In this document: piece after piece, positions 19,468-44,487 of the stretch
How positions within the stretch are numbered: the stretch's first letter is position 1
How the letters are laid out: every line of letters begins with the position of its first letter
Translations under genes and position numbers: made by a program
The notes under the pieces: generated by a model
Databases searched by the model: none
Told to the model about the DNA's origin: nothing
What the model saw: the letters and a program-made list of their open reading frames with translations, nothing else
Origin: Schmidtea polychroa
Lineage: Eukaryota
Assembly (NCBI GenBank): GCA_044892525.1
Contig: CM097885.1
Coordinates: 18,788,001 to 18,852,000 of the forward strand
DNA length: 64,000 bases
Direction: 5' to 3'

Positions 19468-20015
19468 AGTCAATGTTCTCAGGTACAATCCAACAAAGGA
19501 GACTGATGATGATATTATTATGAAACACCCACATTTGGATATAATACAAAGAACCAGAGTTACTAATACCACACATATCTATTTAATGTAATATCATTAT
19601 AATATCATTATGAATAATATCATTATACAGCTGTAGTAAGCATCAAAAATTAATGAATTGTCATCAAAATGAGAATGGTTATGTAAGAATCCAAAGTATA
19701 TTGTGGTGCGGGAGCTATTCGCACAGCAAGCTAATAATTGGGAAAATAAGTAAATTGTAAATCCAATATTGTTCTAAATTTTATTTTATCGTTATTTGAA
19801 ATTGTATTGACGTATTCGTTGGTATTCGGCTCGGCGTCGTGGATTGAATTGGTTTTTGGTAGTTGCAAGTGATTTTGTTTGTTGTTGCTAAATCGGAATA
19901 AGATGACATTTTGTTTGTTGCTGCTAGTCTGAGTAAAACAGACATGTTTTTTGTAATGTTTTAAAATCTTCATTATTTAAACAAATTACACTCGCACTCA
20001 GTTTAATATACTATT

Positions 20016-23000
20016 CAGGCCCGGCTCAAGGGCCAGGCGACCTAGGCCATAGCCTAGGGCGCCAAAATTTATTATAAACAATCAAAGTAAATTATAAAAT
20101 AAGCCTCCAAAACTTTATATTTTGAAATTTATCTATGAAACCAACCGTTTTAAAAAAAATTGAAAATAAGAAAAAACAAAAAAAAAAGTACATGCAAAAT
20201 ATACGAATTTCCAATTCTGAGAAATTCTGATATGTATTGAAAATTGAAATAAAAAAAAATTATATGTATGTATTACAAAAACTGATGTGCGAGTTAAATT
20301 AACAGCTATAGCTACCAGTTTTTTTAACAATTTTTTTGTTTCAAGTGTGTAACTAATGTGTTGTTGCAGTTTGTTCAAATTAAATTTGTATTCCTATTCT
20401 GTTTTAAAAATATAAATATATAAGAGGTAAGGTAAGATTAAGATCATTTTTTAAAAATATATTGGAAAATATATAATATATTTATATAAATTTATGCCAT
20501 AGCTAAGATGCCACCAAAAAGATTGAGTGGGTATGAATTATCGGAAACGAAAAATAAATAGACAACAACAAGCTGATAAGCACGATAAAATATTGAAATA
20601 TTTTAATTCCAGTAAATCAGTAGCCGATGATAATCAACATTTCGAGTCAAAATCTTCAAGCTCAGAGGACGATATAGGTAATGTGTCATCAGAAGCTGAA
20701 AATTGTAATATTGTCAATGAGGATAATTTAATGTCTTCTCACGGAACTGAAATAATTGTTCCTAGTGATTCAACTCATTCTGTATTTGAAAATATTTTAA
20801 ATTATAATGATATTGAGCTATGGCCACAAAATTTAAAACATACGGAAATTGACCATATAGTTGTAACTGACTTATATGGAAACGAAGAAAGGTGTAATCA
20901 ACAACATATTTATCCAAGAGATGAAAATAATCGAAGCTTTTCCAATTCGCTTTTTTATCGTCAAATAAGTAATGGTGAAAAATTCCTAAGAAAATGGTTG
21001 CACTATTCAGAATCCAAAAATTCTGTATTTTGTTTTTTTTGCAAACTTTTTGATCCATCAGGTAGGTCAAATCTAGCCAAATCTGGTTTATCGGATTGGA
21101 AAAATATTCACGACAGCTTGAAAATGCACGAACGGTCAGTTTCACATTTAAAATGTGAAAAAAACTCGATAGAAACTCGATTAAGATTAAAAGGCAATAA
21201 AACTATTGATAAGAATTTGCAGTCTTTGATAGTTCAAGAAAAATATAATTGGAAAAAGGTACTAGAAAGATTAATAAACATAACATTATTTTTGTCCAAA
21301 AATAATTTAGCATTTCGGGGTTCTTGTGATAAGTTATTTGTTCCGCATAATGGAAATTTTTTAGGCCTTGTTGAACTTCTAGGAAAATTTGATTTACCAT
21401 TAAATGGGCATTTGCGCAGGGTGGTCTCACAAGAAATTCATGTTCATTATTGTGGAAAAACTATACAAAACGAATTAATAAGTACACTTGGTGATATGAC
21501 AAGAAGTCATATTTTGGATTCTGTTCGTAAATCGAAATATTTTTCGATTATTTTAGACTGCACACCTGACATAAGCCATATCGAACAGCTCTCCATAACG
21601 TTAAGATTTTATGATGTTGAGGATATGGAAATAAAAGAGCATTTTGTATCCTTTAAACCAGTTTTTGATTCTACTGGAAAAGGATTATATGATGATATTT
21701 CTGAAAGTTTAGAAGAATTCAATTTGGAATTAGCAAACTGTAGAGGCCAAGGATATGATAACGGCGCTAATATGAAAGGTAAAATTAAAGGAGTGCAAGC
21801 TAGAATTTTAAAAGAAAATCCAAGAGCGTTTTTATGCCTTGTGGTTGTCACTCAATTAACCTACTAATTGGTGATAGTGTTTCTTCTTCAATAATGTGCA
21901 TAAAGTTTTTCGGATATGTTTAAAGAATTTATACTTTGTTTGCTGCATCTGTTGGACGATGGAATATATTGAAAAAACATATTAAATCATTAAATCCTAA
22001 ACCTTTAAGTGAAACGAGGTGGGAATGTAGAATCGAATGCATTAAAGCAATAATGTTTGAAATCACGGAAATTAGAAACGCATTAAATGAGTTGCAAGAC
22101 ACAATATTAGATGCTGCAGTTGTTTCAGAAGCTAGCTCTTTATCTGAAAAAATAGAAGATTTCGAGTTTTTGTTAACATTATCTGTCTGGTACGTACTTT
22201 TGTCAAAATTTAATATTGTCAGCAAATCCATGCAAAAACTTACATTTGATATGAGTAACGCCATCGAGCTTCTTCGGAATTGTAAGATTTTTCTAGAAAA
22301 TTATAGACTCCGGTTTTTCTGATGCTTTAAAATCGGCCAAAGATCTCGCTGCGCTATTAAACGTGAACGCACAATTTAAAGCTGTAAGAATCAGAAGGCG
22401 ACAAAAACAATTTAGTTATGAGTGTGACGATGAAACTCCGGATGCAAATGACCCAGAAAAATATTATAAAAATCATGTTTTTAATGTTATGCTGGATCAA
22501 TCGTTGATATCTATATCAGAAAGGTTTCAGCAAATGAAAGATTTCGAAGATTCGTGGGGTTTTTTGTTCAATATTCACAATAATAAAAATCGTTGTGATT
22601 TGCTGAAGAGTTGCAAAGATTTACATCTGAAATTAACAAATGAGGCCAGTAGTGATATAAATGGAATAGAATTGTGCGAGGAAATCGAATCATTGAAGCA
22701 ATTGGTACCAGATGATGTTAAAGATCCTTTAATATGTTTACAATTTATCAATGATAATAATTTGAAAAGTACAGTACCAAATCTGTGGGTGGCTTTACGA
22801 ATCCTCGTAACAATTCCTGTTAGTGTTGCGAGTGGTGAAAGAAGTTTTAGTAAATTAAAACTAATAAAAACGTATTTGCGATCTACTATGACGGAAGATA
22901 GGTTGAATAATTTGGCCATTATTTCAATTGAAAATAATGTTGTAGCAAACCTAAATTTGGAGGCAGCAATAGAAAAATTTGCAGACATGAAAGCCAGGAA

Positions 23001-23184
23001 AAAATCATTCTTATAAATTCTGTTTTTTATATATATGTCAATCGAAAAAAATGAAATAAAGTAATAAATGGATTGTTTTTTGTTAAACTTTTTTATTTTA
23101 TCATAATTTTTGTACCTAATTTTTAAAATAGGGCGCTTTTTATAATTTTCGCCTGGGGCGTATAATTATCTCGAACCGGCGCTG
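20016..23184 (+). mobile_element. Full-length hAT (ZMYM1/TTF-finger type) with disrupted transposase
   Basis: 8-bp TSD ATACTATT (20008-20015, 23185-23192); imperfect TIR CAGGCCCGGCTC / CAGCGCCGGTTC. Transposase split into 20527-21867, 21936-22322 and 22363-23016 (FCFFC, LDCTPD, YDNGANM, TRWE, SGERSFSKL). Confidence 0.93.
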
Positions 23185-27100: not shown

Positions 27101-28557
27101 GGCTGTAATGATAAAAGAGAGGTTAAAACGAATCCTCGTTCTCCCATTTACGTTCGGTTGCTCTAAGACGTTCAATGTACAATTACATTTAAGATCAACG
27201 CGACCCTCATCTCAACGATATCTTAGGTAGGGAAAATGGACCTAAAATGCTAATTAATTTCCCCTTTCGATTTCTTCTTTAATTTAATTTAAGTTGGCTG
27301 GAGACTTACGAAATCCAAGTTTATAAGTCTCGGTTACAGAATTGTAGTTCGTATGTTTAAAGTGGAAATCCATGAGCTTAGTTTTGATAAACTACTGGTT
27401 GATACAGTAGAAGTGAGCGTTTAAAATTTTATAAATTAAACTTTTAATAGTAGTTGTTTAAATCATGCAAAGATTTAATTTAACTATTTATACCACTCTA
27501 TATTAATTCAAATATTAAACTTTTAATAGTGGTTGTTTAAATCATTCAAAGATTTAATTTAACTATTTATTCAAATATTATTTTTCATTTTTTAGAATTC
27601 TCCATTGATAATTTTTTGGCAAAATTTATGCTACTAGGACCCACTATGGGAAGCGGATGTTGCAAATTGTATGAATTTGTATTCAACTCTTTGTGAATCC
27701 CTGACCATAGTGGTTGTAAGTGGCCCTTTCATCAGCTGGTGCTCGATAGTAAGTTAAAATTTTTATCTTTTGTAGTTGCATAATTTCAGGAATGGGTCTC
27801 TAATTCCTCGGTTTTTAGTATTTCAATCATTCACGGTATTGGAGTTATTACTGTTTAGTGGAATCCAAAGTATGGCTATACTCCCAATTCGTGGGCATTT
27901 AGGAGAAATTTCGGGGATTTATGGTGGTTTCAGGATTTTACTGATCTGTGCCACAGGAATTTAAAGTGAAAATTGGGACTCGAGTTTTTCTGAGTAGTCC
28001 CCTTCTAGAAATTCCTTAATATTACCGGTAAGATTCTTTTTGTGATTAGAATGGTTTCGTAAACAAAATTTTTGATTTTATTAAATACATTTTCGCTTTC
28101 GTTGATTCTTATTTAAGTAATTTTGTTTGACGTAAATTAATAATTATCGAATAATTTTGTTAACTCCTCATGAGAACCTATATAGTTAGTAATCACGACT
28201 TGTTATTACTCCTTACTTTTGGTCCTACTGGGTGGGTATTCCGATTCAGACCGTCACTTTCGGGGACTAGGTCCCGTGGCTTACATGCGATCTACTTCTG
28301 GGGTAACAAGGGTTAAATTCATATGGGTGAGATAGTTTTTATCGAAAGATTAGAGTTTCTACTGACATGGTCGATGGCGATTGGCTCGTGTAGGGGAGAG
28401 TATGTGCCACCTATTCGGTCAGTTAGGAGTAGTTCGTAGGGGGTAACCCTTGGTTTGCAGGGTTGTTACTAATAATAGAAGCGGTATTATTGGTCTAACT
28501 TTGCTATGAGGGAAAGAAAAAATCGATACTGTCGGTTTTGAACTTTCCTATTAATAG

Positions 28558-29452
28558 TGTTGGGGTTCAACAAGAGAGGCACAAAAATGAGGTGAAAATT
28601 GACAAAAACACCAAATTCAGAATAAAAATTTAAAGTACAAAATATTAATTAAAAATCAAAAATTTTAAAAAAATGAATATTTTCTGGGGGAAACTGGTAT
28701 GGGCGGATGCTAAATAATGAGACGAGTTCAGCTATAATAAAATAAAATCAATGGGGGTCCCTAAAAGGAATAAATTACAAAAAACAAAAATTAATTAAAA
28801 ATTAATTAACTAATGGAAAACCCGAGCTAATGGGAAACCCGAGCTATTGGAGAACCCGAGCTAATGGGAAACCCGATACAATGGAAAACCCGAGCGAATT
28901 GAGAAATCCAATTTCGGGAAGGCAATTAATTTAGCCGGAGAAATCTAATTTTGGGAAGGCAATTAATTTAGCCGGATAAAAAGTAAAAAGCGCCGTCAAA
29001 CAAATTCCATTCAATTAAATTAGATCTCCAAGAGGAAGCCCGGGGGGAAATAGGACCAAAGATAATTGGCAAAAATAAAGTCAATTATTAAACGAGTATA
29101 AAAGCAACTGGCAAGAAAACAAAATGCCAGTTGGTCGAAGAAAAGAAAATAGAAGTTTGAAGAGAGCGAAAAGGGAAATATTAAAGTTAGTAGAAATTAA
29201 ACCATTTAAAAATCGAACGTACCAGAAAGGGACATCTCCCGTTGGAAGATCTACCCCTGCGTGAGATTTGTTAATAAATTGAAAAGTGCAGACAAAACCT
29301 GATTGTATCAAGTGTGAGTAAACTAATACAAGTGTAAAAGTGTAACTGCATCAGTGTCAATAAAGATTTTGTGTTGGGTTATTTATTTATTTATTTGCAA
29401 AAGAACACAAAGGAGTCAGACCGTAGTACCGACTTACATTAAAAACCCAACA
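28558..29452 (+). repeat. 5' LTR (895 bp)
   Basis: TGTTGGGG...CCCAACA; five 17-bp repeats (28811-28895); TATAAAA at 29097; AATAAA at 29359. Confidence 0.97.
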
Positions 29453-29456
29453 TATT

Positions 29457-29474
29457 TGGTGAGCCCGACGTGAT
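29457..29474 (+). promoter_or_regulatory. Primer binding site, tRNA-Trp
   Basis: TGGTGAGCCCGACGTGAT is complementary at 17/18 positions to the animal tRNA-Trp 3' end as recalled (ATCACGTCGGGGTCACCA). Confidence 0.85.
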
Positions 29475-29843
29475 CAAAAGTCGGTGAAAATTTGTTGAAA
29501 TTGTGATAATATTTGAGTGATACCGAAGATTAAAAAGATCGGTGAAAATTTGTTGAGATTAGTAAAGTATCGGAAAAATTTGGAAAAAGATAATAATTAA
29601 ATAAATAAATATTGAAGTGAAACGTTTATTTGAAAGTGGTGAACATTTATTTGAGAATTATTAAAGTGGTGATTTTATAATTGAAGCAAAGTGGAAAAAT
29701 TTGTAACGATTGATTGTTGAAAAGTCAAAATTAAAACGAAAGGAAAATTTTGTAATTGTAACACTTTGAATTTTAGACGAGTAAAGCCTGTGTTGACACG
29801 ATCATTTTATAAATTGAGAAGCCAAACACTAATAGAGAATTTA

Positions 29844-32800
29844 ATGAGTACCCAAAGACTAACCAATAATACAAATAACAACGACGAAACACCTGTGTCC
29901 ACGGTGGGCAACGGCAAGGAAGGCAATGATTATGCGAGTTGTCAAAAACTACCTGTGGATCAGTACGGTGGAGATCCGCTGGAATTTGTCGATTTTATGG
30001 CAGATTACTATATGTATGCGACGGCCTATGGATGGAGCCAATCGATAATGGTGCAAAGATTACCGCTATACCTAAAAGGAGCAGCCAGAGAAGCGTGGCA
30101 ACAAATTGATAAAAGAATAGTAGCAAATGACTGGACCAAGTTGAAAGACGCGTTAGCCACGAAATTAATCGGAGTGGATATCAAACGGATAATGCGACAG
30201 AAATTCTATAACCGCGTACAAAAGCCAGAGGAATCGGTAAGTGAGTTTGCTTATCATTTATCAACTCTTGCAGAGAAAGCGTTCGAAGTGAAACCAGAAC
30301 AGGCCGAGATGGCAAAGCAGGTAAAAGAATTATTGCAGGATCAATTCTTGTCAGGAGTAAAGAAAGAAATTAAAAAGGCTCTATGCTATGTTGATTTTAA
30401 TGACTTTGATGAATTGATCAAAAAGGCAATGAAAATTGAGCTAAATTTAAAAAGCACACAGTCAAAATCAGAGTCGTTTGCAGTCATCTCAGGCGCAAGC
30501 GAAAGATCAGTAACCCCAATTAGAAACAATCGTTTTCAACAAACAAGTAGTCCATCACCAAAATTTAGATCCAAATTTGAGTCGAACAAGTCAACAGATA
30601 TTCAAATAGATGGAAAGGAAGGTCCCATCCAATGTAGTCATTGCCAAAGGATTGGACACCATGTTAACCAATGCTGGTTTAAAAATAGAGTACAGAGAAG
30701 CCCAATTCCGATTCAGTGTGATAATTGCCAAAGAATGGGACATGACAGCAATCAATGCTGGTTCAAAAATAATGTACAACGGAGTCCAAGGCAAATGTGG
30801 TCTGATTGGTTAAAAGGAAATGGTGCGAAAAGTTTCACTAAAGCGAACATTAATGAGCCGAGAACTAATGATAACTTACAATGCTTTAATTGCGGAAGAA
30901 AAGGGCATGTGTCACGAAATTGTTTTCCAAGGTCAAGATCAACATCAACATCACCATCACCGCAGAGAGATAAAGTAAATCTACAAGGACAAATTCAATG
31001 TCATTCATGCAGAAGTTATGGACACATGGCTAGATCATGTCCAAGAAATATGGATAAATTCCAAAGACCCATATTAAAGAAATCGATTAGGTTTCAGAGT
31101 GACAAACCGCAGATGGATAATGTAGCTTTTATTCAGCCAGATAATTTTAATGAAAGAATTGAAAACGAAGTGAGAGAAATGGGTCGACGTTTGGATCGAT
31201 TGATGTCAAAGTTTGAATCAGAAGAGGACTACAATAATCACATGATGTATGAGTCGCAAGAGGAATTGAATGAAAAAGAGTCGAAAAGGAGAGTTATAAA
31301 AGATGATTTAGAAAGTGAAAAAGCAACAATGATAATGACCAGAATCGAAAAACTAATTGGAAATAATGAAATAGAGTCGGCTAAAGTGATCAAATCGTTG
31401 AGAGAATTAAGTCAAATATCTTTGAGTATGAGAAAGATAAAAAGTGTAATTAGCTTGTGCGTTAACTACTATAATATGAATCCAAAGTATAAAGAAGAAA
31501 TTAAAGAATTAATGAAAATATTTGGAAAAGCTTTGAGAGAGAAAACAGGGTTAGATTCCATCTTGGTGGAAGTAGTAAACGAGATTGATAAAAGTGTATT
31601 ATGTTGTCGTTGTGAGGCAAATGATTGTGTAAATGATTTAAAGAATAAATTAAAAGAAAAAAAGGAAGGATGCATGATAGAGTTGAGATTTAATGAGAGA
31701 TTGTTAGAAAATGACGAATTTTTAGTAGATTGTGGATTTATACCAGGGAATACAAATGAATTAAAAATGGAAAATGTAATTACTAGTGATGAAATAATGA
31801 GTAGTAAAATAATAGACAAAAGGAATTCAAGGGAGATATTAGAGGAATTAAATGATGCGTTATATATTGGAGATGAAGATGAAATCGATGAGAAGTTACA
31901 GATTATTGAGAAATTAGAAATGGAGGACAACGATAAACTAAAAATAGTGAATATAATACGACCATATTTACATGTGAAAACCAGATATGCCAAGTTATTA
32001 AGAAGTTTATTGCAAAGATTGGGCAAGGAGCTCAGAAAGGCAAGAGTAGAGTTAAAGCCATTTTTGATAGCATTAGATTATGAGGGATATGGCAAAACGG
32101 AATATGTAGACGAGCATTGGTGTGCAAAGGTCCGAAAATTGCGGAAGAGAGCGGCTGAAACGCTGGGAAAAGATGGAATTATTATAGTAATGTACAAAGG
32201 TGAAGAACTTGACGATGATGAATACCTATATGATTGTGGGTGTGTACCACAAGAGCTGGATGAAAACGGATATTTGATCCGAGATGGACGAGTGGGATAT
32301 TTAGTGAACCATATAGTCGTAGTAAAAGGAGTGAGTTTAGAAGTAAATATTGAGTCTAACAAGCCTGACACAGAGGAACAAGATGAAAAAGTTAAGGGAA
32401 ATAAAGAAATTGATGAAATCGTTAGTGATAATGAGCAAAAAGATCCTGATAACAAAGATCAGTCCACAGAACCAGACGTACAAGGAGAGCCACTTGTACC
32501 TGAAGGCGAAATAAATGGTGAAATCAAAAATAAGAAAGTTAGAACTTTATATGAAATAAAGAAATATTTAGTGAGGCTAGAACAGGACGTCGACGAAACT
32601 AAGAAAATGTTGAAACATCTCGTTAAAGCAGTATATCCAATGTTCGACATAGAAGTAGAGGTAGATGATGAACTGAAAGAAATAGTTAAAGAGATGAAGA
32701 ATAGGCTTCCTGAAGTGATGCAGAAATTTGGCGAAGAGAATACATTTTGCGAGAGATCAGTAATCGAAAATTTGGCAAAAAATGAAATTAATAAGGAGGT

Positions 32801-34022
32801 TATAATAATAGCTTTAACTTATGTTGTTTTAGAAATTGGAACGCATACGTTCGCAAGGTCAGACAAGTTAGAAAATTTGATAGACATCGCTGCCCGGCTA
32901 GTAAACGAATATTTAATGAGCTGGGTAAACGAAAAAGGTGGTTGGAAAACACTGTGTTCATCTCTAACAGAAAAGAAAAATGAGAAGCAAGAAATGAGTC
33001 CACCCCAAAGACGAGTAAATGAAAGAGTTAAGCCAGAACTAAGAAAAACTATGATATTTCCATGGGCGATGTTTATGGTGATTACGTTTTGTGCAATAAT
33101 TACACAGACATCATCTTTAGTTGCGTACGATTGTTCCCAAACTGAAATGGGAAAAGTTTATTCGGTAGTAGATATGTCGGAATGCCCAGGTGCGTATCCG
33201 AGCAGTTTAAAAATAGAAAATGACGTAAAATATTATGTGTATCAAGAGTCTGATCTGCGAAGAACTCAAGTGAGAGAGTGTATTGTCAAACATACAACAT
33301 TTGTATTCTATTGTGGTAAATGGAGCCATACGTCACTCATAAAAATGCATGCGATACCTAGGCCAGTCGAGGTGCTTCCAGAAAACTGTCTAGCAGCATT
33401 TCAAACAGGAGAATTAAAAATAAGTCCAGAAATTCGTTTAAAGGCAAAATTGAACCATAGAATACGAGAAACAATAATTGTAAAGGGAGTTATGAAAGCA
33501 AATGGCGACTGTGAAGGTGAACCATATAAAATGAACGGTAAAATTATTCAGCAAACAGTGGTGCTAGAAGAATATCTCACGGAGTTGAGAGAGTTCGAAG
33601 GAGCTTTCGATGATGATACGGGAAAATTACAAACTCATCCATTCTGTAATATGAAACAAACACATTGTCAAACAGGGGAATCGATTCTTGTTTATAATGT
33701 AGAAACAAATAAGTGTAATTTAGCGCACTTAAAAACTATGAACTTTAAAGAGCTAGTAGGAGAACAGTTTAGAGATAAACCAGATAATTTCAATATGAAT
33801 TATAGACCAAATAATACCATTAAATCAACCCCAGTATGGACAAAGCAAATGGGAACAGTTTTAATGTCTACGTTACCAAGCATGTGCAGGTTTAATTGGA
33901 ATTTACGTTATTATGATAACGGCAAAGGTGGTAGTGTCGCAAATGTTGTCAGTACATCGAATATACGTAATATCGGGATGGTCATGGAAATTAGTTATTG
34001 GTTGTATTCCATTGTTGGCTAG
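29844..34022 (+). CDS. gag: ORF1 polyprotein: Gag (capsid, 4 CCHC knuckles) - 2x(helical + ubiquitin-like) - Bcl-2-like - signal/TM - N-terminal half of a chuvirus-type glycoprotein
   Basis: First ATG at 29844. LKGAAREAW and QKPEESVSEF capsid motifs; CX2CX4HX4C at 30633, ~30717, 30882 and 30999; WVNEKGGW at 32922; AYDC at 33123; YCGKWSH. Confidence 0.9.
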   Translation: MSTQRLTNNTNNNDETPVSTVGNGKEGNDYASCQKLPVDQYGGDPLEFVDFMADYYMYATAYGWSQSIMVQRLPLYLKGAAREAWQQIDKRIVANDWTKLKDALATKLIGVDIKRIMRQKFYNRVQKPEESVSEFAYHLSTLAEKAFEVKPEQAEMAKQVKELLQDQFLSGVKKEIKKALCYVDFNDFDELIKKAMKIELNLKSTQSKSESFAVISGASERSVTPIRNNRFQQTSSPSPKFRSKFESNKSTDIQIDGKEGPIQCSHCQRIGHHVNQCWFKNRVQRSPIPIQCDNCQRMGHDSNQCWFKNNVQRSPRQMWSDWLKGNGAKSFTKANINEPRTNDNLQCFNCGRKGHVSRNCFPRSRSTSTSPSPQRDKVNLQGQIQCHSCRSYGHMARSCPRNMDKFQRPILKKSIRFQSDKPQMDNVAFIQPDNFNERIENEVREMGRRLDRLMSKFESEEDYNNHMMYESQEELNEKESKRRVIKDDLESEKATMIMTRIEKLIGNNEIESAKVIKSLRELSQISLSMRKIKSVISLCVNYYNMNPKYKEEIKELMKIFGKALREKTGLDSILVEVVNEIDKSVLCCRCEANDCVNDLKNKLKEKKEGCMIELRFNERLLENDEFLVDCGFIPGNTNELKMENVITSDEIMSSKIIDKRNSREILEELNDALYIGDEDEIDEKLQIIEKLEMEDNDKLKIVNIIRPYLHVKTRYAKLLRSLLQRLGKELRKARVELKPFLIALDYEGYGKTEYVDEHWCAKVRKLRKRAAETLGKDGIIIVMYKGEELDDDEYLYDCGCVPQELDENGYLIRDGRVGYLVNHIVVVKGVSLEVNIESNKPDTEEQDEKVKGNKEIDEIVSDNEQKDPDNKDQSTEPDVQGEPLVPEGEINGEIKNKKVRTLYEIKKYLVRLEQDVDETKKMLKHLVKAVYPMFDIEVEVDDELKEIVKEMKNRLPEVMQKFGEENTFCERSVIENLAKNEINKEVIIIALTYVVLEIGTHTFARSDKLENLIDIAARLVNEYLMSWVNEKGGWKTLCSSLTEKKNEKQEMSPPQRRVNERVKPELRKTMIFPWAMFMVITFCAIITQTSSLVAYDCSQTEMGKVYSVVDMSECPGAYPSSLKIENDVKYYVYQESDLRRTQVRECIVKHTTFVFYCGKWSHTSLIKMHAIPRPVEVLPENCLAAFQTGELKISPEIRLKAKLNHRIRETIIVKGVMKANGDCEGEPYKMNGKIIQQTVVLEEYLTELREFEGAFDDDTGKLQTHPFCNMKQTHCQTGESILVYNVETNKCNLAHLKTMNFKELVGEQFRDKPDNFNMNYRPNNTIKSTPVWTKQMGTVLMSTLPSMCRFNWNLRYYDNGKGGSVANVVSTSNIRNIGMVMEISYWLYSIVG

Positions 34023-37000
34023 ATTCTTTATTACAGATCATCAATTTAAAGAAATGGCAAGAGTAAGGGCACAATTAAGAAATGGCCGGAAAAGTGAGGA
34101 ATCGACGTGTCAGTCGGAAGATAAAAACGACAATCATAATGATGATAACAACAACGGGGAATCGGAGCATAAATGCTTTCGAAAAAGTGCAATAAAGAGT
34201 AAAGTAGAGCCAGAGTCCAGGTTCTTGCTTGAACCAATGCCAAAATTAAGCGGGATTGATACTCTTAGTAGATGGTATACCCCGACATTTAGACCAACAG
34301 CACCAGTATATCCAAGTGAAAAACTAAAAGAGATGAAATCGGTCGATAATATCACAATAGAATTAGAGAAGATTGAACCAACGAGTGCTGAAATTGAAAG
34401 AAAGAATATGCTTGGTCTACCATGCAGCTATGCACTAATGACAACAGTAGTAGGAGGAAAACAACCTCGAATAAACATACAGTTTAACAAGAGAAAAGTG
34501 GAAGCTTTATTAGACTCAGGCTCAAGTCATACTATAGTAGCGGAAAGTTTCTTGACGTATCAGGAGAAAGCCAAAATAAAACCAACGAATCACATTATTA
34601 AATCAATGTCACATAATGCACTAAATATTGTTGGAAAATTAGAAGTTAAACTTATAATTGGAGATCAAGAAATAATTCATTGGGTATCAGTGATGAGAAA
34701 AAGTCCTGTAAAATGTCTTATTGGCATGGATGTCATGGAGCAACTACGTGGAATCTCTCTTGATCTGAGAACTGGAAAACTAATAAAAGGACAAATGGGT
34801 GAAGTAGTGCCTGAAGTAGGAGAGGTATTTCTAAACCAAACATTGGAAGTACCACCAAAAAGCGAAGTAATATACTATGCAGATGTTATGAGGGTCTCAG
34901 ATGAGGAGTACATATTTGAGCCAAATCAAAAGCTGGTTGAAAAATACGATGTGCCTATGTGTGATGAAGTAGTGAAAGTTCAAAACAAGTCAGTACCAGT
35001 TAGAATAGCGAATTATAGTGCAAGATCCGTTGAAATAAAGCCCAAAACCAAATTGGGAAAATTAACAAAAATCAAATCAGAGGAAGCTCAGAAGTTACCG
35101 AGGAATATAAAAATTTATAAAGAACCTCAGATCACAAGCAAAGATTTGACGGATTTGCAAAAACAAGAATTCAGTGCATTATTAAAGAAATATAGAAATG
35201 TATTTGCAAAACATGAGTATGATCTGGGACTCACTCAGGTGATTGAGCATGAAATACCATTACTCAACGAAACCCCAATAAAATTACGGCCGTACAGAAT
35301 ACCATACATACATCAGGAAGAAAGTGATCGGCAAATCAAAGCAATGAAAGAATTCAATATAATAAGAGATAGTTCCTCACCATTCTCATCATCAATAGTA
35401 GTAGTTAAAAAGAAGGACGGTGATTTAAGATTTTGTGTTGACTATCGAAAACTGAACCAAGTAACGAGAAAAGATACATATCCTATTCCTGTTCCACAGG
35501 AAATGTTCGATCAGATGGGGGAGGTGCAATATTTTACGGTAATAGATCTTAATAAAGGATACAATCAATTTAAAGTCAAAGAGGAAGATAGAAGGAAAAC
35601 TGCATTTTCAGATGGGAAGGGTCTATATGAGTTTAACGTGTTACCATTCGGATTAACAGGAGCACCTGCTACATTTCAGAGAGGTATGAATTTTGTTTTG
35701 CGCGATATACCACATGCATTAGTGTATATTGACGATATAATAATATTTTCGAATAGTTTTCAGGAACATTTGCAGGATGTGGAAACAGTATTCAAGCGAT
35801 TGTTAGAAGCAAACTTAAAAATAAAACCCTCCAAATGTGAATGGAGAAAATCTGAAGTAGTTTATGTGGGTCATATCATTTCGCGTCGAGGTTTGCAACC
35901 AAATCCAGAAAATGTAGAGAAAATTAAGGAATATCCTATTCCCAAGGATGTAGATCAGGTTCGACAATTTCTGGGATTAGCTAGTTATTACAGAAAGTTT
36001 ATTAAAAGTTTCTCACATGTCGCACAACCTTTGAACATGTTATTGAAAAAGCAAGCAAAATTTAAATGGACAAAAGCTCAGCAAGAAGCGTTTGATAAAC
36101 TCAAAGAAAGCTTAATAAAACAGCCGATATTAAGATGTCCGAACTTTAAAAAACCGTTTATATTAATGACAGATGCCAGTAATTTCGCATTAGGCGCGGT
36201 ATTAGGACAGCAAGTAGAATGGGAAAAAGATCATGTAATTGCTTATGCCAGCAGATCATTGAAACCTCATGAGAAAAATTATTCGACAATCGAAAAAGAA
36301 ACGTTAGCATTGGTATATGGGATAACCACTTTTCGACAATACCTAGTGGGCAGAAAATTTGTTGTCTTTACGGATCACAATCCGTTACAATGGCTAATGA
36401 AGCACAGAGATTCGGCCAGTAAATTAATTAGGTGGTCAATCGCGTTACAAGAATATGATTTCGAGATAAAGTATCGTACAGGGAAGTCAAATGCAAATGC
36501 GGATGCTATGTCAAGAATACCAGTGGAAAATAATGTTGATCAGGATGAGAAAAATTGCGAAAATACAATATTTATGGCAATAAAAACCGCAAATAATATA
36601 GAAAAATTACAAGATGATCAAGAAAATGACGAGGAATTAAATCAGTTACGCCAACATGCTGTCACAATCAAAAAGGAGAGTGACTGGAAACATATTGCCG
36701 AAGAGAACCATAAATACATTATTCATGATGGTTTGTTAAAATGTGTACAAAATGAAAATTTGTTAATTATTGTTCCGACAAAACATCGAAAATCATTACT
36801 GTTGTTGTATCACGATGGAGCATTAGGAGGGCATTTATCAGCGCGAAAAACATTATCAAGATTGAAACAGAAATATTATTGGAAAACGATGGAACAAGAT
36901 GTCAGACAATGGTGTCATACGTGTGAGATATGCCTAACAAGACGAAATACGGGACGGAAAATAAAAGTTCCGCTTAAGCCTATGCCAGTGCCCAAGGCGC

Positions 37001-39153
37001 CAATGGAAATGACAGCAATGGACATCGTTGGTCCATTGCCGGAAACAACAAATGGCAAAAAATACATTATCGTTTTTTGCGATTATCTTACTAAATGGCC
37101 AGAAGCTTATGCAATGCCAAATCAGAAAGCAGAAACAGTTGCGAAAATATTTGTGGAGAATATTATTTTTCGATACGGAGCACCAAAGAAATTACTTACA
37201 GATCAAGGAACAAATTTTCAGAGTGAATTATTTAAATCAATCACAGATTTATTTGGTATATTGAAACTTAGTACCTCACCATATCATCCACAGACAGATG
37301 GTCTAGTTGAAAGATTTAATGGGACACTAATTAATATGATATCATCCTATGTAAATAGGAAACAAAAGGATTGGGATTTATTCATTAAACCATGCTTATT
37401 TGCATACCGGAATGCAGTAAATGAAAGCACTGGAGAAACACCCTTTTATCTCATGTATCTACGACGAAACAATATGCCAGTCGATCTAGAATTTCAGTCG
37501 CCTATTTCCCAATATATGGATGTGTCAGATTATAAAATAGCTATGCATGAAAGACTACAGTTAGTATGGATCCAAGCTGGACTTAACATAAGGCATCATC
37601 AAGAAGCGTATAAAGAATGCTATGATAAACGCGCACGGGCGCATGACATTAAAATTGGAGATCTCGTGTATATAAACAAACCAGAACCAACAAAAGGCTT
37701 GTCAACGAAATTGCAACGACCGTTTAAAGGACCATATCTAGTGTGTGATACGACAGAGACTAACTTAAAATTGCGTCCACAAAACAATAAAAAGGCTGGG
37801 ACAATCATCGTTCATGTAAATAGATGCAAAAAGATAATAGAAGATGAATCACGTTATCCATTGAGATCAAAGCCAAATAAAGATGCAGGGAACCCAGTAA
37901 TTAAACAAAAGTTTACAAAAAACCCTGCTCCATTGAGTTACATCAATAAAGTTTTATTGATTACAACAGTAATGATTATCAATATAATGTCAGTAAATGC
38001 AGTGAGAGTATTCCCGTTATATGCAACTAATACAGTTGTATTATTAGACAAAGTTCATATTTATTCAACATGTACTCAAATAGTTTGGGTTTATTATGCT
38101 GGAGGAGCAGAAGAAATAGAGATAAATAATCTAATAAACTATTTTGAACCCCCAATAAAATTGAACAGCACCAAAAATATTTATGTGGCTAGACAATTAA
38201 CAATGAATTATGAATACCCTTGGTTAATTACGCAATTGGATTCGAAAAGTAATAATACAAAAATACAAAATCTTATACGCATTAATATTTGGACAAAGAG
38301 ATTACATAATCGAGTATCAATTGAACCACTGGTAAATGGAATTGACATATATTGGGAACCCCAGGAATCCCAACAAGTAAAAGCAGTTTTTCAAAATTAT
38401 GCGATAGATACATTGAATAGCAGAAAACCCTTTATAAAGTATGCAAATTTAAAATTACATCATAACTATAATATTCTGATTCACTATTATGAAAAATCTT
38501 TATACGAAAACGGAACTGAAATTGATAGTCAATGGATCAGAATACACTCTAGTCAACATATGATACGATTAGTTAATGAAACAAATCGGGTTACTTTTCA
38601 TATTTTCAATCAATTAGTGAATGTTACCCGACAAGCGGAGCCCAATCAAAAAGCTATTTTATATTATTATGGAAAAATTCAATCGATATTAAATGAAAAA
38701 AATAAATCTCAAATATTAACTTTTCGTCAACGTTCACCAATATCGACGTCAAAATTTGTGTTCATTAAAATAAAATACTATAGACGTTCTCTATTTTCAA
38801 ATCTATGGCAATTAACTTTAGTGGAAAATAAAATTGTGCAAATTCCATCTATTAACTCGCAGTATGGAAATCGAAACAAATCAAATCAGTCCAACCAAAC
38901 CCCTAGCTCTGCCAACGTAATCATCTTTTCTAGCATCAATGAGTCAATGACTAATAACGAAACCATATCGTCATTAAAAACTGACAGTGAAATTGTGTGT
39001 GTAACATTATTAATAACTACTCTCATTATAACAATCTCTCTCATTATTCTCATTATCATTGTGCTAATTGAATTTCGAACAATACCCAAACCTTCTACGA
39101 ATCGATCCGAGATTGCGAGACCTTGGATCGTTTATGAAGAAACATTTGTGTAG
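33865..39153 (+). CDS. pol: ORF2 polyprotein: glycoprotein C-terminal TM and tail - protease - RT - RNase H - integrase - FN3-like type I membrane protein
   Basis: Frame open from 33865 (track ATG at 33913). LLDSGS (D at 34513), YIDD (35725), TDAS, HHCC, D-D-E and GPY motifs; second signal peptide at 37951-38001; TM at 38992-39069. Confidence 0.95.
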   Translation, partial: CLRYQACAGLIGIYVIMITAKVVVSQMLSVHRIYVISGWSWKLVIGCIPLLARFFITDHQFKEMARVRAQLRNGRKSEESTCQSEDKNDNHNDDNNNGESEHKCFRKSAIKSKVEPESRFLLEPMPKLSGIDTLSRWYTPTFRPTAPVYPSEKLKEMKSVDNITIELEKIEPTSAEIERKNMLGLPCSYALMTTVVGGKQPRINIQFNKRKVEALLDSGSSHTIVAESFLTYQEKAKIKPTNHIIKSMSHNALNIVGKLEVKLIIGDQEIIHWVSVMRKSPVKCLIGMDVMEQLRGISLDLRTGKLIKGQMGEVVPEVGEVFLNQTLEVPPKSEVIYYADVMRVSDEEYIFEPNQKLVEKYDVPMCDEVVKVQNKSVPVRIANYSARSVEIKPKTKLGKLTKIKSEEAQKLPRNIKIYKEPQITSKDLTDLQKQEFSALLKKYRNVFAKHEYDLGLTQVIEHEIPLLNETPIKLRPYRIPYIHQEESDRQIKAMKEFNIIRDSSSPFSSSIVVVKKKDGDLRFCVDYRKLNQVTRKDTYPIPVPQEMFDQMGEVQYFTVIDLNKGYNQFKVKEEDRRKTAFSDGKGLYEFNVLPFGLTGAPATFQRGMNFVLRDIPHALVYIDDIIIFSNSFQEHLQDVETVFKRLLEANLKIKPSKCEWRKSEVVYVGHIISRRGLQPNPENVEKIKEYPIPKDVDQVRQFLGLASYYRKFIKSFSHVAQPLNMLLKKQAKFKWTKAQQEAFDKLKESLIKQPILRCPNFKKPFILMTDASNFALGAVLGQQVEWEKDHVIAYASRSLKPHEKNYSTIEKETLALVYGITTFRQYLVGRKFVVFTDHNPLQWLMKHRDSASKLIRWSIALQEYDFEIKYRTGKSNANADAMSRIPVENNVDQDEKNCENTIFMAIKTANNIEKLQDDQENDEELNQLRQHAVTIKKESDWKHIAEENHKYIIHDGLLKCVQNENLLIIVPTKHRKSLLLLYHDGALGGHLSARKTLSRLKQKYYWKTMEQDVRQWCHTCEICLTRRNTGRKIKVPLKPMPVPKAPMEMTAMDIVGPLPETTNGKKYIIVFCDYLTKWPEAYAMPNQKAETVAKIFVENIIFRYGAPKKLLTDQGTNFQSELFKSITDLFGILKLSTSPYHPQTDGLVERFNGTLINMISSYVNRKQKDWDLFIKPCLFAYRNAVNESTGETPFYLMYLRRNNMPVDLEFQSPISQYMDVSDYKIAMHERLQLVWIQAGLNIRHHQEAYKECYDKRARAHDIKIGDLVYINKPEPTKGLSTKLQRPFKGPYLVCDTTETNLKLRPQNNKKAGTIIVHVNRCKKIIEDESRYPLRSKPNKDAGNPVIKQKFTKNPAPLSYINKVLLITTVMIINIMSVNAVRVFPLYATNTVVLLDKVHIYSTCTQIVWVYYAGGAEEIEINNLINYFEPPIKLNSTKNIYVARQLTMNYEYPWLITQLDSKSNNTKIQNLIRINIWTKRLHNRVSIEPLVNGIDIYWEPQESQQVKAVFQNYAIDTLNSRKPFIKYANLKLHHNYNILIHYYEKSLYENGTEIDSQWIRIHSSQHMIRLVNETNRVTFHIFNQLVNVTRQAEPNQKAILYYYGKIQSILNEKNKSQILTFRQRSPISTSKFVFIKIKYYRRSLFSNLWQLTLVENKIVQIPSINSQYGNRNKSNQSNQTPSSANVIIFSSINESMTNNETISSLKTDSEIVCVTLLITTLIITISLIILIIIVLIEFRTIPKPSTNRSEIARPWIVYEETFV

Positions 39154-39585
39154 TAAGACATAAATACTTTGCATGCAAAAATTGATAAAGTAGTAGTAGT
39201 AATATAGTATAAATATTTTATGGATATTATTAATATTTTTTTTCTTTATGGATATGATCAATATTTCATTTTATTTTACTTGTGAATCTGCACTTTTCAA
39301 TGTCAACGGAAAGAATCAATTTGATTGGTTAGCGCTGTGTTAAGGGGGAGAAAAAAACGGGGTTAAGGGAATTTTCATAAGGGTATTAAAAGAGGGTAAA
39401 ATCCATTAAACTCCATTAATTTTCAAAAAAATATATATATCAACAATTAACTAAACGGTAATTATTATTATTATTATTATTTATACAGCTAGTAGCTGGG
39501 ACAGTATCCTTCGGATACTTCATCTCAGCCCTAGTTTTAAAAGTAAAGTAAATTCAAACGTTAAATTATAACTATTTTAGCAAAA

Positions 39586-41046
39586 ATGGAACAAGTACAA
39601 TGGACAAGATCCACCTACGACAGTTACTTCAAGATGCAGAAAAATCATGCCAGCCAACAATTATACGAAATCAATGAAAATTTACAAATTCCAAATTATT
39701 TGAGGATAGATGACAGAAGAATGAAGATACGAATGTTTACAATAAGGAGAAATTCAGAATTGAAATTGACAGATGAAATTGAGTTGTCTCGGAAGGAAGA
39801 ATATCACATACACGTGATCAGAGGTACAGTGGAAGTGCTGAAGAACGATAATACAATATGGTGGCAACTTCGAAAATTCACATCGTGGAAGCTGCAGAAG
39901 GACTCCATGTGGAGAACACTACGAGCAGCGAATGAGGAGACAACGTTGGTGGTGGAAATCAGAACTGAGAATGAAGCGGATGAGGTACCACAGATGCATC
40001 TAATTGAAGGAGAAGACCCAATGTTATTGAAAATTTCAAAGGAAATGTTGAAAAAGAAAATGTCGTTTCTCAGAAAAGAAATGGATCTAGAAGAAATCCG
40101 CAGTAGAATATTATTCATTGATGCTGAATATGGCACATCAGAGCAAGGGAAAATGGTCCCTTTAGCAATAGCAATTATGAATTATTATGGGAAAGTAGTA
40201 AAAGATGTATACCTCACTCCAAGAGGAAAAATCCGACATTTTAATTCAAGGATCCATGGAATTACAGAAGTGGCCAGCAGGAACCAATGTGATCAATATG
40301 TGGCAATGAAAGAGATACAACGCTTGACAGTAGGCAAAATATTGATCGGCCATGATTTGCATGCAGAATTACAATACTTGGGGATATGGATTGAACAATT
40401 GTACGGCATTCGAGATCTAGCAGCAGCACCAATACTTCAGAACATGGGAGTAACCATAAGGGGAGAATGGTTCAAACTACAAACAGTGGTGAAAGAAATA
40501 TGTGGAGAACAGACTCAGATGAGTATTCATTCGGCTCTCGAGGACGTGAAAAGTATACGCAAGGTATACCAGAAAGTGGAAAGTCAATGGATTGATGACA
40601 TACCGATGCCCAAAAATCAACCGTCAAAGCGATATTCGTGGGATGAATATAAGAAGCTTCGGGAAATTGAATCAACATCAACTGCAATACCAGAAAAACT
40701 AACGCAAATTCCAATTGAAGATGTAATGGAATCTGAAGAAATTGATTTAACATTCGAGGAGAATGTGACGATGGATAGTGAAAATCCATTGATTCAACTG
40801 AAGTGGGCCAATGAATCATTCTTAGAAATTGCGGAAGGTGTCGCATTAATGGTAAGCATACCGATGATAAGGATACATCCAACACTTGAATATGGTCCAA
40901 TGCCAGAATGTAGAAAATCCAAAAAGAGAAAAACAACTTCGAACATTGATGTCGGAGACACTGTCAATGGTGTAGTATATGAACGCGAAGAAACAATAAT
41001 ACGATATCGGCATGAAACGAAACGATTAGAAATAAAGATGGATTAA
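39586..41046 (+). CDS. ORF3: cupin-like N-terminus + DEDDh 3'-5' exonuclease (REX4/ISG20-like)
   Basis: ExoI FIDAEY (40120), HGIT, ExoII-like LIGHDLHAEL, ExoIII HSALED; intact 486 aa. Confidence 0.85.
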   Translation: MEQVQWTRSTYDSYFKMQKNHASQQLYEINENLQIPNYLRIDDRRMKIRMFTIRRNSELKLTDEIELSRKEEYHIHVIRGTVEVLKNDNTIWWQLRKFTSWKLQKDSMWRTLRAANEETTLVVEIRTENEADEVPQMHLIEGEDPMLLKISKEMLKKKMSFLRKEMDLEEIRSRILFIDAEYGTSEQGKMVPLAIAIMNYYGKVVKDVYLTPRGKIRHFNSRIHGITEVASRNQCDQYVAMKEIQRLTVGKILIGHDLHAELQYLGIWIEQLYGIRDLAAAPILQNMGVTIRGEWFKLQTVVKEICGEQTQMSIHSALEDVKSIRKVYQKVESQWIDDIPMPKNQPSKRYSWDEYKKLREIESTSTAIPEKLTQIPIEDVMESEEIDLTFEENVTMDSENPLIQLKWANESFLEIAEGVALMVSIPMIRIHPTLEYGPMPECRKSKKRKTTSNIDVGDTVNGVVYEREETIIRYRHETKRLEIKMD

Positions 41047-41659
41047 TTTTTATATATTGTATTTATAAAATAAATAATTGTGAACTCGATTTTGTCTCAT
41101 GTATTTATTGGCAGCGCATCAGTTAGACCCCAAAATAAGAATAAATAAGTAAATAATTGAGAGTAAATAAATAATCAAATAAATAAATAAAACTATTATT
41201 GTGTATAACAACAAACACATTTCCAATTGTCGGGGTTTGGCTACCCTGGACAACAATTGGAAATGAGTGGTTGTAAAGAGCCACATAAACAGGTTGCGAC
41301 AAATCATAACAATTTATAATTTATTAGACAAAAAGGAATTGATAAATATTTTCAAATCATAATAGAAATTTTCGATATTTATAATTCATTTAAACAAATT
41401 TAAAATATTAATTCATAAAAATAATATATATATATTGCCAAAGAAAATATTGAATTCACTGACTCAGCCACTTGTAGGCGAAAAGATAACAAACATTTTT
41501 ACCAAAAAAAAATTATAACATAATAACAGTAAGAGACCTTGAACAAATACTTGGAAATGTTGTTTGAAAGCAAGTGATAAAATAAATTTATTCAATATAA
41601 AATCACACTTTCCATTTCATTTTATTTAAATTGTTATAGATAATTATGGAATATCTTAC

Positions 41660-42033
41660 CTGAAATATCACATAAAACATTAAGATCGCGCAGCCTGAAT
41701 TAACTCGATATTTACAAATAATTAATGCACTTCCCATTAATTGACAAATAATATTTATTAGTAGAAAAAATTCAATAATCAAAGAATTCATTTTCCCATA
41801 AACTGGAAATAAAATCTATTTGTTCACTCCACGGGGTAATTAATTGATATCCATCTTCAATAAAGGTCGACACTAAACAAACTCGAGCAATATGAGGTAA
41901 GAATCGACGTGTCTTTCTAATTACCTAGCATACAACTGAAAATTGAAAAGAAAATATACAAATTTACTATATCAGCATAATTCTCTAAATTTGTCAAACA
42001 ATCCTTTTTATTATTTCGAATAGAATCAACCAT
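41660..42033 (-). CDS. SURF4: SURF4/Erv29-like gene (N-terminal part), antisense inside the LTR element; exons 42033-41968 and 41924-41660; one +1 frameshift near 41795
   Basis: Spliced read MVDSIRNNKKDCLTNLENYADI|VIRKTRRFLPHIARVCLVSTFIEDGYQLITPWSEQIDFISSLW-MNSLIIEFFLLINIICQLMGSALII, versus SURF4 as recalled ([45 protein letters not shown]). 43-nt GT-AG intron. Confidence 0.85.
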
Positions 42034-43584
42034 TAAGAAATTTACAACGTAGTAATTTAAAATTAAAATTAGTCTAATTATTCAAGTTTATAAACTCGAT
42101 AAGTGATTGTATTTTCTTTTCTGTAAAAATATAATTTTCTGTTATTACATTTTAATAAAAAAATAAAATAAATGGCATACCGATTTCTTTACACTTTGTT
42201 CATTTTCCAAGAACTCTCAGAAAATAGTTTGGCATTTTATCTGCAACAATATCAAAGCTCATTATATAGTTTTATAACGAGCCTAAGTGAGCAAGCGAAC
42301 GGTTCGTGGTCTTATCTGTTGGCGATATGTGTCGAGTCCAGTGTCTTTCTAAACTGAAATTAGCCGTCTCTAAAATCGCTTGAAGTTCTGCAATAAAAGT
42401 CAATGACTAGTTCCAATTTGATGGCTGTCGTGTTAAAATGAAATGACTTAATCGCCTATCACACACATACACGAGAGAAGAGGGAAAGTGACACACCTCC
42501 TAGTATGAAAGAAGTCAAAACAACAAAACAAATTAAATTACCCTTGAATTAGTCCAAATTGTAGATGTGTAACAAATTCAATCGGATGATTGGTGGATTT
42601 AATTATCATTTTCCTTTTGGAATTTTCCTATCTCCCGTCAAAAGTGCAAACCAATTTCTTAAATAATTTCGGTTTTAGATCTGAAATTGAAAAACAAATT
42701 GAATTACCCTCAACTGCAATTGAATTAGTTGATTGGATCAAAAAGAGAAAAACCGCAACTACAATTGAATTAGTTAAATAAATTTTTTTCAACAAATTCC
42801 AAAAACGTGATATATTTTGTTTTAATGGCATGCTAATATTTCATGAAGGAGGCAGTGAATAACAAAACAAAAATGTCAAATTATAATTCAGAATGATTTT
42901 CTTAGAGATTATTGGAAAATATAAAATAATAAAATATTGTTTTGGTTGACATTTAAGAAACAGAATTGTCAAAAGCAGCTGAATAAATATGAAAAATAAA
43001 TTTTTTTCAACAAATTCCACCATGTTCAACTAAGTTGAATAACAAAATAATTTTTTTTAAATTATTATTAATATTATTATTATATCAAACTGATTTTCTC
43101 ATTAATTTCTTTTGTTTCTCTTTTGGAAAAAAATTCTGTGAAATAATAGTTTAAAATAAATAGCTAAGCAACTATCTGTGATGAACCCAACTTGATATCA
43201 TATTGTATACACTGCACAGTGCATTTCATCATGTACAAACAAATATTATGATGCCCGATACACAACTGTCACCAATATTACAATTATTATCATCATCATT
43301 ATTAATTATTATTAGTATTGTTATCGGTAGTATTATTATCGTCATTATTATTGTTATTAGTATTAACATTATTATTTATATTAAGTAGTGTGAGGATGAT
43401 GGGGGGGGGGGGGGGAGTCGAATAAGGAAATTTCAAAATAAAATATCTCAGATTTAAAATCATTGGCAAAGGCAATAGCTAAAATAGGTAGATAGCAATC
43501 CATTTTTATTATTATTATTATTATTGTTATTACTGTATGGTAAATTTGACTTATTATATGCAGATTCGAGGTCGAATCTAAATT

Positions 43585-43595
43585 AAAGGGGGAGA
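43585..43595 (+). promoter_or_regulatory. Polypurine tract
   Basis: AAAGGGGGAGA, 2 nt upstream of the 3' LTR. Confidence 0.9.
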
Positions 43596-43597
43596 TA

Positions 43598-44459
43598 TGT
43601 TGGGGTTCAACAAGAGAGGCACAAAAATGAGGTGAAAATTGACAAAAACACCAAATTCAGAATAAAAATTTAAAGTACAAAATATTAATTAAAAATCAAA
43701 AATTTTAAAAAAATGAATATTTTCTGGGGGAAACTGGTATGGGCGGATGCTAAATAATGAGACGAGTTCAGCTATAATAAAATAAAATCAATGGGGGGTC
43801 CCTAAAAGGAATAAATTACAAAAAACAAAAATTAATTAAAAATTAATTAACTAATGGAAAACCCGAGCTAATGGGAAACCCGATACAATGGAAAACCCGA
43901 GCGAATTGAGAAATCCAATTTCGGGAAGGCAATTAATTTAGCCGGAGAAATCTAATTTTGGGAAGGCAATTAATTTAGCCGGATAAAAAGTAAAAAGCGC
44001 CGTCAAACAAATTCCATTCAATTAAATTAGATCTCCAAGAGGAAGCCCGGGGGGAAATAGGACCAAAGATAATTGGCAAAAATAAAGTCAATTATTAAAC
44101 GAGTATAAAAGCAACTGGCAAGAAAACAAAATGCCAGTTGGTCGAAGAAAAGAAAATAGAAGTTTGAAGAGAGCGAAAAGGGAAATATTAAAGTTAGTAG
44201 AAATTAAACCATTTAAAAATCGAACGTACCAGAAAGGGACATCTCCCGTTGGAAGATCTACCCCTGCGTGAGATTTGTTAATAAATTGAAAAGTGCAGAC
44301 AAAACCTGATTGTATCAAGTGTGAGTAAACTAATACAAGTGTAAAAGTGTAACTGCATCAGTGTCAATAAAGATTTTGTGTTGGGTTATTTATTTATTTA
44401 TTTGCAAAAGAACACAAAGGAGTCAGACCGTAGTACCGACTTACATTGAAAACCCAACA
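43598..44459 (+). repeat. 3' LTR (862 bp)
   Basis: Matches the 5' LTR apart from two fewer 17-bp repeats, one extra G and one A/G substitution that I could see. Confidence 0.97.
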
Positions 44460-44487
44460 ATAGTAACGTTTTATTGATAATCATGTT

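Follow-up and report, generated by a model that had tools for sequence, protein, structure and literature searches.

A predicted second membrane glycoprotein with fibronectin type III-like repeats and a class I PDZ motif behind the integrase of a Burro-related Ty3/gypsy element in Schmidtea polychroa

A stretch of 64,000 nucleotides from Schmidtea polychroa (GenBank assembly GCA_044892525.1, contig CM097885.1, positions 18,788,001 to 18,852,000 of the forward strand), here called the window, was analyzed and found to contain a Ty3/gypsy element with long terminal repeats (LTRs; Table 1). Its protease (PR), reverse transcriptase (RT), RNase H and integrase (IN) are held by a stop-free frame from 33865 to 39153 (1762 amino acids), which continues past the integrase. 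A first-pass annotation had read this extension as a signal-like stretch, an ectodomain, a transmembrane (TM) helix and a tail ending in ETFV and a stop, and each of these features was found in its place. The analysis supports the extension as a predicted second type I membrane glycoprotein with fibronectin type III (FN3)-like repeats and a class I PDZ motif, held under selection.

Table 1. Features of the element and of the post-integrase extension (window positions; KD, Kyte-Doolittle hydropathy; ORF, open reading frame; gB, glycoprotein B).
Feature	Position	Strand	Remarks
Ty3/gypsy LTR element	28558-44459	+	15.9 kb
5' LTR (TG...CA)	28558..29452	+	target-site duplication ATAG at 28554-28557
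Polyprotein, first part	29721..34022	+	Gag, CCHC knuckles, weak ubiquitin-like and Bcl-2-like domains, first internal signal, N-terminal part of gB-type fusogen
Second long ORF part	33865..37950	+	fusogen end (TM), protease, putative dUTPase-like position, RT, RNase H, integrase
GPY motif	37729-37737	+	
Y-x-L-R-S motif	37855-37869	+	just before second signal
Second internal signal	37951..38001	+	VLLITTVMIINIMSVNA; KD 19-mer 1.8; predicted signal-peptidase site after V-N-A
Repeat 1	38032..38301	+	likely FN3-type beta-sandwich; STCTQIVW at 38065; YVARQLTMNYEY at 38182
Repeat 2	38302..38562	+	likely FN3; GIDIYWEP at 38338; YANLKLHHNY at 38440
Repeat 3	38563..38844	+	degenerate; FN3 solely via likeness to repeat 2
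N/S/T-rich stalk	38845..38988	+	5 sequons
Predicted TM helix	38992..39069	+	KD up to 3.24
Tail	39070..39153	+	27 residues, ends Y-E-E-T-F-V and stop; ETFV at 39139-39150; class I PDZ motif
Accessory ORF	39565..41046	+	separate ORF; presumed DEDDh exonuclease-like motif
3' LTR	43598..44459	+	polypurine tract ahead; ATAG duplication at 44460-44463

The type I layout (signal, glycosylated luminal domain, single TM helix) was predicted by hydropathy and by eye, and hydropathy, sequon excess and the -3/-1 pattern fit it. The signal-peptidase site of the second signal was assessed by eye with the -3/-1 rule, the other features by hydropathy, which agrees with the TM helix proposed before. Where about ten N-glycosylation sequons had been estimated, 12 were counted in the 400 amino acids of the extension, 11 of them before the TM helix, compared to 6.2 ± 2.2 in shuffled sequences (p = 0.01). 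The 1140 amino acids of Pol used for comparison hold 7 sequons.

Conservation of the extension in frame in other copies had been set beforehand as a test. Among the 104 best-scoring of 3093 candidate copies, a sample biased to intact copies, the extension was stop-free in 95, and in 91 of those 95 the frame was open back to the GPY motif, i.e., 91/104 were open from GPY to stop. ORFs of at least 3400 amino acids were present in 24 of the 104. Near-identical copies of family A, to which the window copy belongs, share 98-100% identity in the extension; it was open with the same stop in 20/20 inspected copies, of which 19 had GPY in frame and the twentieth likewise an open frame. This region or its surroundings is disrupted in copies L064, L070, L075 and L092/L093.

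Six further lineages were recovered from the same genome by searching with the fusogen, Bcl-2 and BIR families. The signal-ectodomain-TM-tail layout of lineage A is common to D, B, C, E, F and a Burro1-like lineage, and the signal-like stretch stands at the same position throughout lineages A-F and the Burro1-like lineage. Lineage A ends in ETFV, lineage D (RT 91% identical, extension 50%) in ETWV, lineage B (RT 85%, extension 35%) in PPSYYETRL, and lineage E (RT 55%) in ENIYETEV. Lineage C (RT 47-49%), with one FN3-like domain and a Thr-rich stalk, ends in SSLV, STLV or STWV, and the Burro1-like lineage, which has an ORF of 4791 amino acids, ankyrins and an ectodomain rich in Cys, in ATLV. 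Lineage F, which ends in NSRI, was composed from two adjacent stretches in separate frames whose continuity was inferred. An RT tree of 9 rows (six lineages, D left out, with two ordinary gypsy elements as outgroup) places these lineages on four deep branches. A C-terminal S/T-x-V/L/I, i.e., a class I PDZ motif, was present in 7/7 element lineages examined in the genome. As a control, 128 ORF ends of at least 200 amino acids from the window and loci L051-L095 were compared, with copies that are not independent of each other: the motif was found at 23/23 ends of this protein and at 4/105 other ORF ends, and its chance per ORF end is 0.029.

Comparison of an ectodomain-only profile with 1.84 billion representative proteins gave 5 matches at E up to 0.001, all unnamed singletons. 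The outside homologue P0005 comprises a signal, three repeats and a TM helix and ends in STLV, P0004 ends in VTQV, and P0006 starts with integrase-end motifs followed in frame by a signal. A class I PDZ end was present in 2/2 outside homologues that reach past the TM helix (chance 8e-4 if independent). Since the tail was absent from the query, this match amounts to a blind test. No homologue was found in three word-index protein searches with the extension, and scans of viral and metagenome contigs gave 96 and 194 pattern matches, none of which was confirmed. The host donor gene that had been proposed as a search target was not identified by tblastn with the top 30 among 90 host FN3 matches as targets (best E 0.58), nor by the word-index searches or the 1.84-billion-protein ectodomain profile search. 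Three long-ORF FN3 loci were considered as elements and rejected as host genes; two of them are probably Robo-like, to judge from their architecture, and one is an ankyrin/FN3 protein.

Selection was estimated from the ratio of nonsynonymous to synonymous divergence (dN/dS). Between lineages A and D, dN/dS was 0.28 for the ectodomain and 0.07 for the integrase, with dS near 1.0 in both; by repeat it was 0.19, 0.18 and 0.54 for repeats 1, 2 and 3. Values between lineage C subfamilies were 0.18-0.35, and those of A versus B were saturated. The ectodomain is under purifying selection and less constrained than the enzymes. As dS is near 1.0 in both parts and the ectodomain dN/dS is 0.28, the extension has travelled with the integrase under constraint.

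The extension has three related repeats, with a mutual likeness of E 3e-4 for repeats 1-2 and E 6e-4 for repeats 2-3 (D2-D3). Two FN3-like patterns had been described in it; both are present, with a modest FN3 signal, but the repeats number three. Neither of the two outcomes named beforehand as refuting the earlier reading occurred: the frame is conserved in other copies, and a signal of a beta-sandwich/FN3 fold, modest as it is, was obtained. In hhalign comparisons with a host FN3 profile (from 28 of 30 host FN3 loci; the repeat profiles include outside homologues), repeat 2 reached a probability of 76% (E 2e-5) and repeat 1 a weak E of 0.002, each beating 100/100 shuffles; repeat 3 was not significant, with 19/100 shuffles scoring as high. 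In an earlier test with 5-row profiles, 0/40, 5/40 and 40/40 shuffles scored as high as repeats 1, 2 and 3, and the test improved only after outside homologues had joined the 5 rows. Of the FN3 pattern formed by the B-strand Trp and the E-F Leu...Tyr, repeat 2 aligns both parts and repeat 1 the E-F part only. In the ESM Atlas, FN3 clusters ranked first for A and B (0.91, 0.92), and the lineage C copy L062 matched PF00041 with E 0.099. A low-confidence AlphaFold model, with a predicted local distance difference test score (pLDDT) of 44, consists of separate all-beta parts with 7 strands in repeat 1, and the top Foldseek matches were tandem fibronectin and SiiE arrays (E 2e-4 to 1e-3). The best PDB sequence matches, all sub-threshold, were FN3 regions of ELFN2/PPP1R29 (E 0.16) and neogenin (E 0.88; repeat 2); PDB sequence profiles with A2 and A3 gave no result. 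By these profile comparisons, repeats 1 and 2 are likely FN3 domains, and repeat 3 would be one indirectly, through its likeness to repeat 2.

The element itself is a young insertion, as an ATAG duplication flanks the two LTRs and these are almost the same in sequence, the differences being 1 substitution, a 1-nt indel and a 34-nt indel. Paired LTRs with this duplication and the order PR-RT-RNase H-IN with a GPY/F module are those of Ty3/gypsy elements. The ORF at 29721..34022 matched PF03732, PF00098, PF00452 (E 0.006), PF00240 (E 0.03) and the fusogen family PF24664 (E 5e-25); the ubiquitin-like and Bcl-2-like matches are weak across copies (E 0.03-0.04 and 0.006-0.013). In the window copy this ORF is cut off by an internal loss of ~875 nt near 33876, which breaks the fusogen gene and leaves two overlapping long ORFs, 29721-34022 and 33865-39153. 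Other copies have a single 3437-aa ORF, and in copy L056 PF24664 was matched with E 5e-87 between the Bcl-2-like domain and the protease. A gB/chuvirus-type fusogen thus lies between Gag and Pol, of which the window copy keeps the N-terminal part only. The proposal of a second surface protein alongside the fusogen stands, by sequence, as regards a selected second type I membrane protein, but the window copy lacks an intact fusogen gene. In a natural copy, hydropathy placed the first signal ahead of the fusogen and a TM helix after it. Gag-CCHC, ubiquitin-like, BCL2-like and Env parts in one frame with Pol, as in Burro, were also found, and there are several near-identical uninterrupted copies, as for GAG-ENV-POL errantiviruses. 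Burro1 proper (size >30 kb; MATH, BIR and ankyrin cargo) was not matched by this element of 15.9 kb, whose three ORFs gave no such Pfam matches; the separate Burro1-like lineage of the same genome does carry MATH/BIR/ankyrin-type cargo. As judged from these features, the element is of the known GAG-ENV-POL, Burro-related Ty3/gypsy kind with a gB-type fusogen.

Behind the extension, the accessory ORF at 39565-41046, with a presumed DEDDh exonuclease-like motif, gave no Pfam match; its homologues sit behind the same membrane protein in lineages C, D and E. The interval between it and the 3' LTR (41047-43597, about 2.5 kb) is AT-rich and has no ORF of 100 amino acids. Four bases past the 5' LTR, a primer-binding-site-like stretch (29457-29474) begins with TGG and presumably resembles tRNA-Trp. 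Two Burro-like lineages have an accessory ORF of coiled-coil-like character (L076 1831-2619; L093 2958-4043) whose last residues, ATWI or ETFL, again form a class I PDZ motif, and the Burro1-like element (L076 and L083) has a further downstream accessory ORF, which terminates in TTEFY shortly after a TM-like stretch. Short stand-alone Bcl-2-like ORFs (about 150-180 amino acids) recur in the genome, e.g., near L065-L067, beside ORFs that we take to be Polinton-like (integrase, ATPase, polymerase-like). Elsewhere in the window, 8904-23016 and 63128-63901 contain hAT-type DNA transposase fragments (DUF659, DUF4371, hAT dimerisation) and an RRM-containing ORF. The Y-x-L-R-S motif is found immediately ahead of the second signal in P0006 as well as in 5 lineages (L059, L061-L063, L071, L090, P0006), and it recurs near the Gag N-terminus (about 29808-29825). 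Its Tyr and Arg are spaced as in the Y537/R540 pair of foamy-virus Gag, which binds the acidic patch of the nucleosome (PMC12125541). By analogy, the motif is possibly a chromatin tether on the integrase.

In the interpretation ranked highest, with a probability of roughly 45%, the second glycoprotein would be released by signal peptidase, gather at cell contacts through its PDZ tail and serve as attachment partner of the gB-type fusogen. Signal 1 would send the fusogen into the endoplasmic reticulum (ER), and the fusogen TM helix would return the chain to the cytosol for PR-RT-RH-IN. Because Pol must be cytosolic, the second signal would re-open translocation; the chain would re-enter the ER, and cleavage by signal peptidase would release a type I glycoprotein with a length of about 383 amino acids. 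Synthesis one-to-one with Gag and the fusogen can be inferred, since a single ORF needs no frameshift; spliced RNA may be another source of this protein. As the fusogen tail runs into the protease, the PDZ motif stands at the sole free C-terminus that the polyprotein encodes. PDZ scaffolds of the Dlg/Scribble/MAGI type would gather the protein at junctions, and its FN3 repeats would keep the particle or producer cell in contact with a neighbouring cell, for instance a stem cell. Three points from the literature favour attachment at PDZ-organised contacts: as a precedent, the class I motif of the Env of HTLV-1, a human T-cell leukaemia virus, binds DLG1 at virological synapses (PMC4810129), herpes gB needs gD/gH/gL while gB-type errantivirus entry is stated as open (Chary and Hayashi, PMC13524379), and BURRO1 is derepressed in differentiated tissue with neoblasts doubly protected (PMC8532177).

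Several observations weigh against an FN3-bearing attachment protein. Pfam, PF00041 included, gave no match above its curated cut-off for the extension or for single repeats, and the recognition scores of the ESM Atlas were low, below the reliable range. The fold check suggested earlier, by AlphaFold and Foldseek, came out divided: fibronectin arrays headed the Foldseek ranking, but with TM-scores of about 0.2, and AlphaFold confidence was low (pLDDT 32 from the single sequence, unusable, and 44 from 5 rows). VIA-align found generic beta-sandwiches only, and its highest Z (6.4) was obtained with a non-FN3 protein. The ectodomains of A/B/D, C and E gave no significant alignment with each other, and that of the Burro1-like lineage (L085-L089), for which Pfam had no convincing match, consists of short Cys-paired beta repeats in the same slot, unlike FN3. 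As the ectodomains differ across lineages while the tail stays, the ectodomain appears exchangeable and the tail motif constant. By sequence comparison, this combination fits a tail-centred role as well as attachment, and the exchange itself fits either a tropism swap or such a role. A complex prediction of the fusogen ectodomain with this ectodomain, run without alignments, scored 0.00 and gave no verdict either way.

Four other explanations were ranked below attachment at cell contacts. HPV E6, HTLV-1 Tax and Ad9 E4ORF1 redirect polarity scaffolds via PDZ tails, and the protein might likewise act off particles, with its tail and nearby tyrosines sequestering or redirecting polarity scaffolds in the producer cell alongside survival cargo, Bcl-2-like and other. 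Across the 7 lineages, whose ectodomains differ, nothing but the tail motif stays constant, the coiled-coil accessory ORF of two Burro-like lineages also has a class I end, and these elements carry Bcl-2, BIR, TRAF/MATH and ankyrin cargo (PMC6431247). Yet the strongest constraint falls on repeats 1-2 (dN/dS 0.18-0.19), and outside homologues retain an ectodomain of three repeats, which a pure scaffold sponge would not need; host-cell modulation is doubtful. Alternatively, the protein might be a decoy receptor or superinfection blocker, whose FN3 array would imitate a host cytokine or adhesion receptor and bind a ligand or the receptor of a competing element. The receptor-like architecture, the weak best matches to FN3 domains of ELFN2/PPP1R29 (E 0.16) and neogenin (E 0.88), and an ectodomain evolving faster than the integrase (dN/dS 0.28 vs 0.07) are consistent with this role, but the searches yielded no specific host donor or model receptor and all A-vs-D dN/dS values are <1, with no sign of positive selection at domain level; it is somewhat harder still to credit.

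The second signal might also serve assembly, tethering Pol to the membrane for RT/integrase packaging, with the released protein marking the budding site. The predicted topology keeps the integrase attached to the signal until cut, and lineage B has PPSY, a PPxY late-domain-like motif. PPxY, however, occurs in 1/7 lineages, the fusogen TM helix already anchors Pol, and three selected luminal domains would be left unexplained, which makes an assembly anchor improbable. A neutral read-through or captured sequence without function could account for the absence of the extension from family databases (Pfam), but it is already contradicted by the purifying selection seen at a dS of about 1, by a frame that stays open in diverged lineages and by the presence of the tail motif in 7/7 lineages and 2/2 outside homologues, and this explanation is barely tenable.

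Returning to attachment, a broader and more tentative proposal, which is less probable than the role of the protein as such, is that a clade of flatworm endogenous viruses enters cells with two glycoproteins encoded by a single polyprotein. The enzymes would lie between them, with a gB-type fusogen on one side and, on the other, an exchangeable attachment protein that resembles adhesion receptors; the PDZ tail of the latter would build a synapse-like contact through which the element passes from differentiated cells into stem cells. To our knowledge, descriptions of envelope-bearing LTR elements give them a single env gene. The class of this element is known, and the second membrane protein behind the integrase is the new part; no such post-integrase protein was found described in the literature searched or in the two closest papers. 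The present analysis adds a test of all three repeats against FN3, a control with ORF ends and, for the outside homologues, a blind test of the tail. An unrelated membrane protein, second to the fusogen and fixed behind the integrase across four deep branches, including the Burro1-like lineage, is a candidate answer to how gB-type errantiviruses enter without gD/gH/gL, and a four-residue motif together with one ectodomain offers a handle, in a regeneration model, on the way in which such elements might get to protected stem cells.

Host FN3 adhesion receptors (neogenin, ELFN2, receptor phosphatases, cytokine receptors) are built from a signal, tandem FN3 domains, a stalk, a TM helix and a PDZ tail. 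The protein described here is predicted to have the same layout, but its similarity to them is sub-threshold, it is without a catalytic or long signalling tail, and it lies inside a retroelement polyprotein. With the GAG-ENV-POL errantiviruses of Platyhelminthes that bear an HSV/gB-type fusogen (HSV, herpes simplex virus), the closest being Smed_errantivirus_1, the element shares this fusogen between Gag and Pol, many near-identical copies and a size of about 15 kb; its fusogen piece in the window is, as judged by eye, roughly 80% identical to the printed Smed_errantivirus_1 segment (PMC13524379). In the available parts of that paper no second membrane protein is described: 'PDZ' is absent from the main text, and 'fibronectin' from both the main text and 7 supplements. 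With the giant planarian gypsy elements Burro/GYPSM1 it shares one polyprotein of Gag-CCHC, ubiquitin-like, BCL2-like and in-frame Env parts, followed by PR-RT-RH-IN (PMC6431247), but it differs in its 15.9 kb, its 3437-aa ORF and the lack of MATH, BIR or ankyrin matches; the review as available mentions no post-integrase membrane protein. In HTLV-1 Env the class I motif is on the fusogen itself and has been tested, whereas here it stands on a separate, predicted FN3-like protein; in both, such a motif ends a retroelement membrane protein, and that of HTLV-1 binds DLG1 at cell contacts (PMC4810129).

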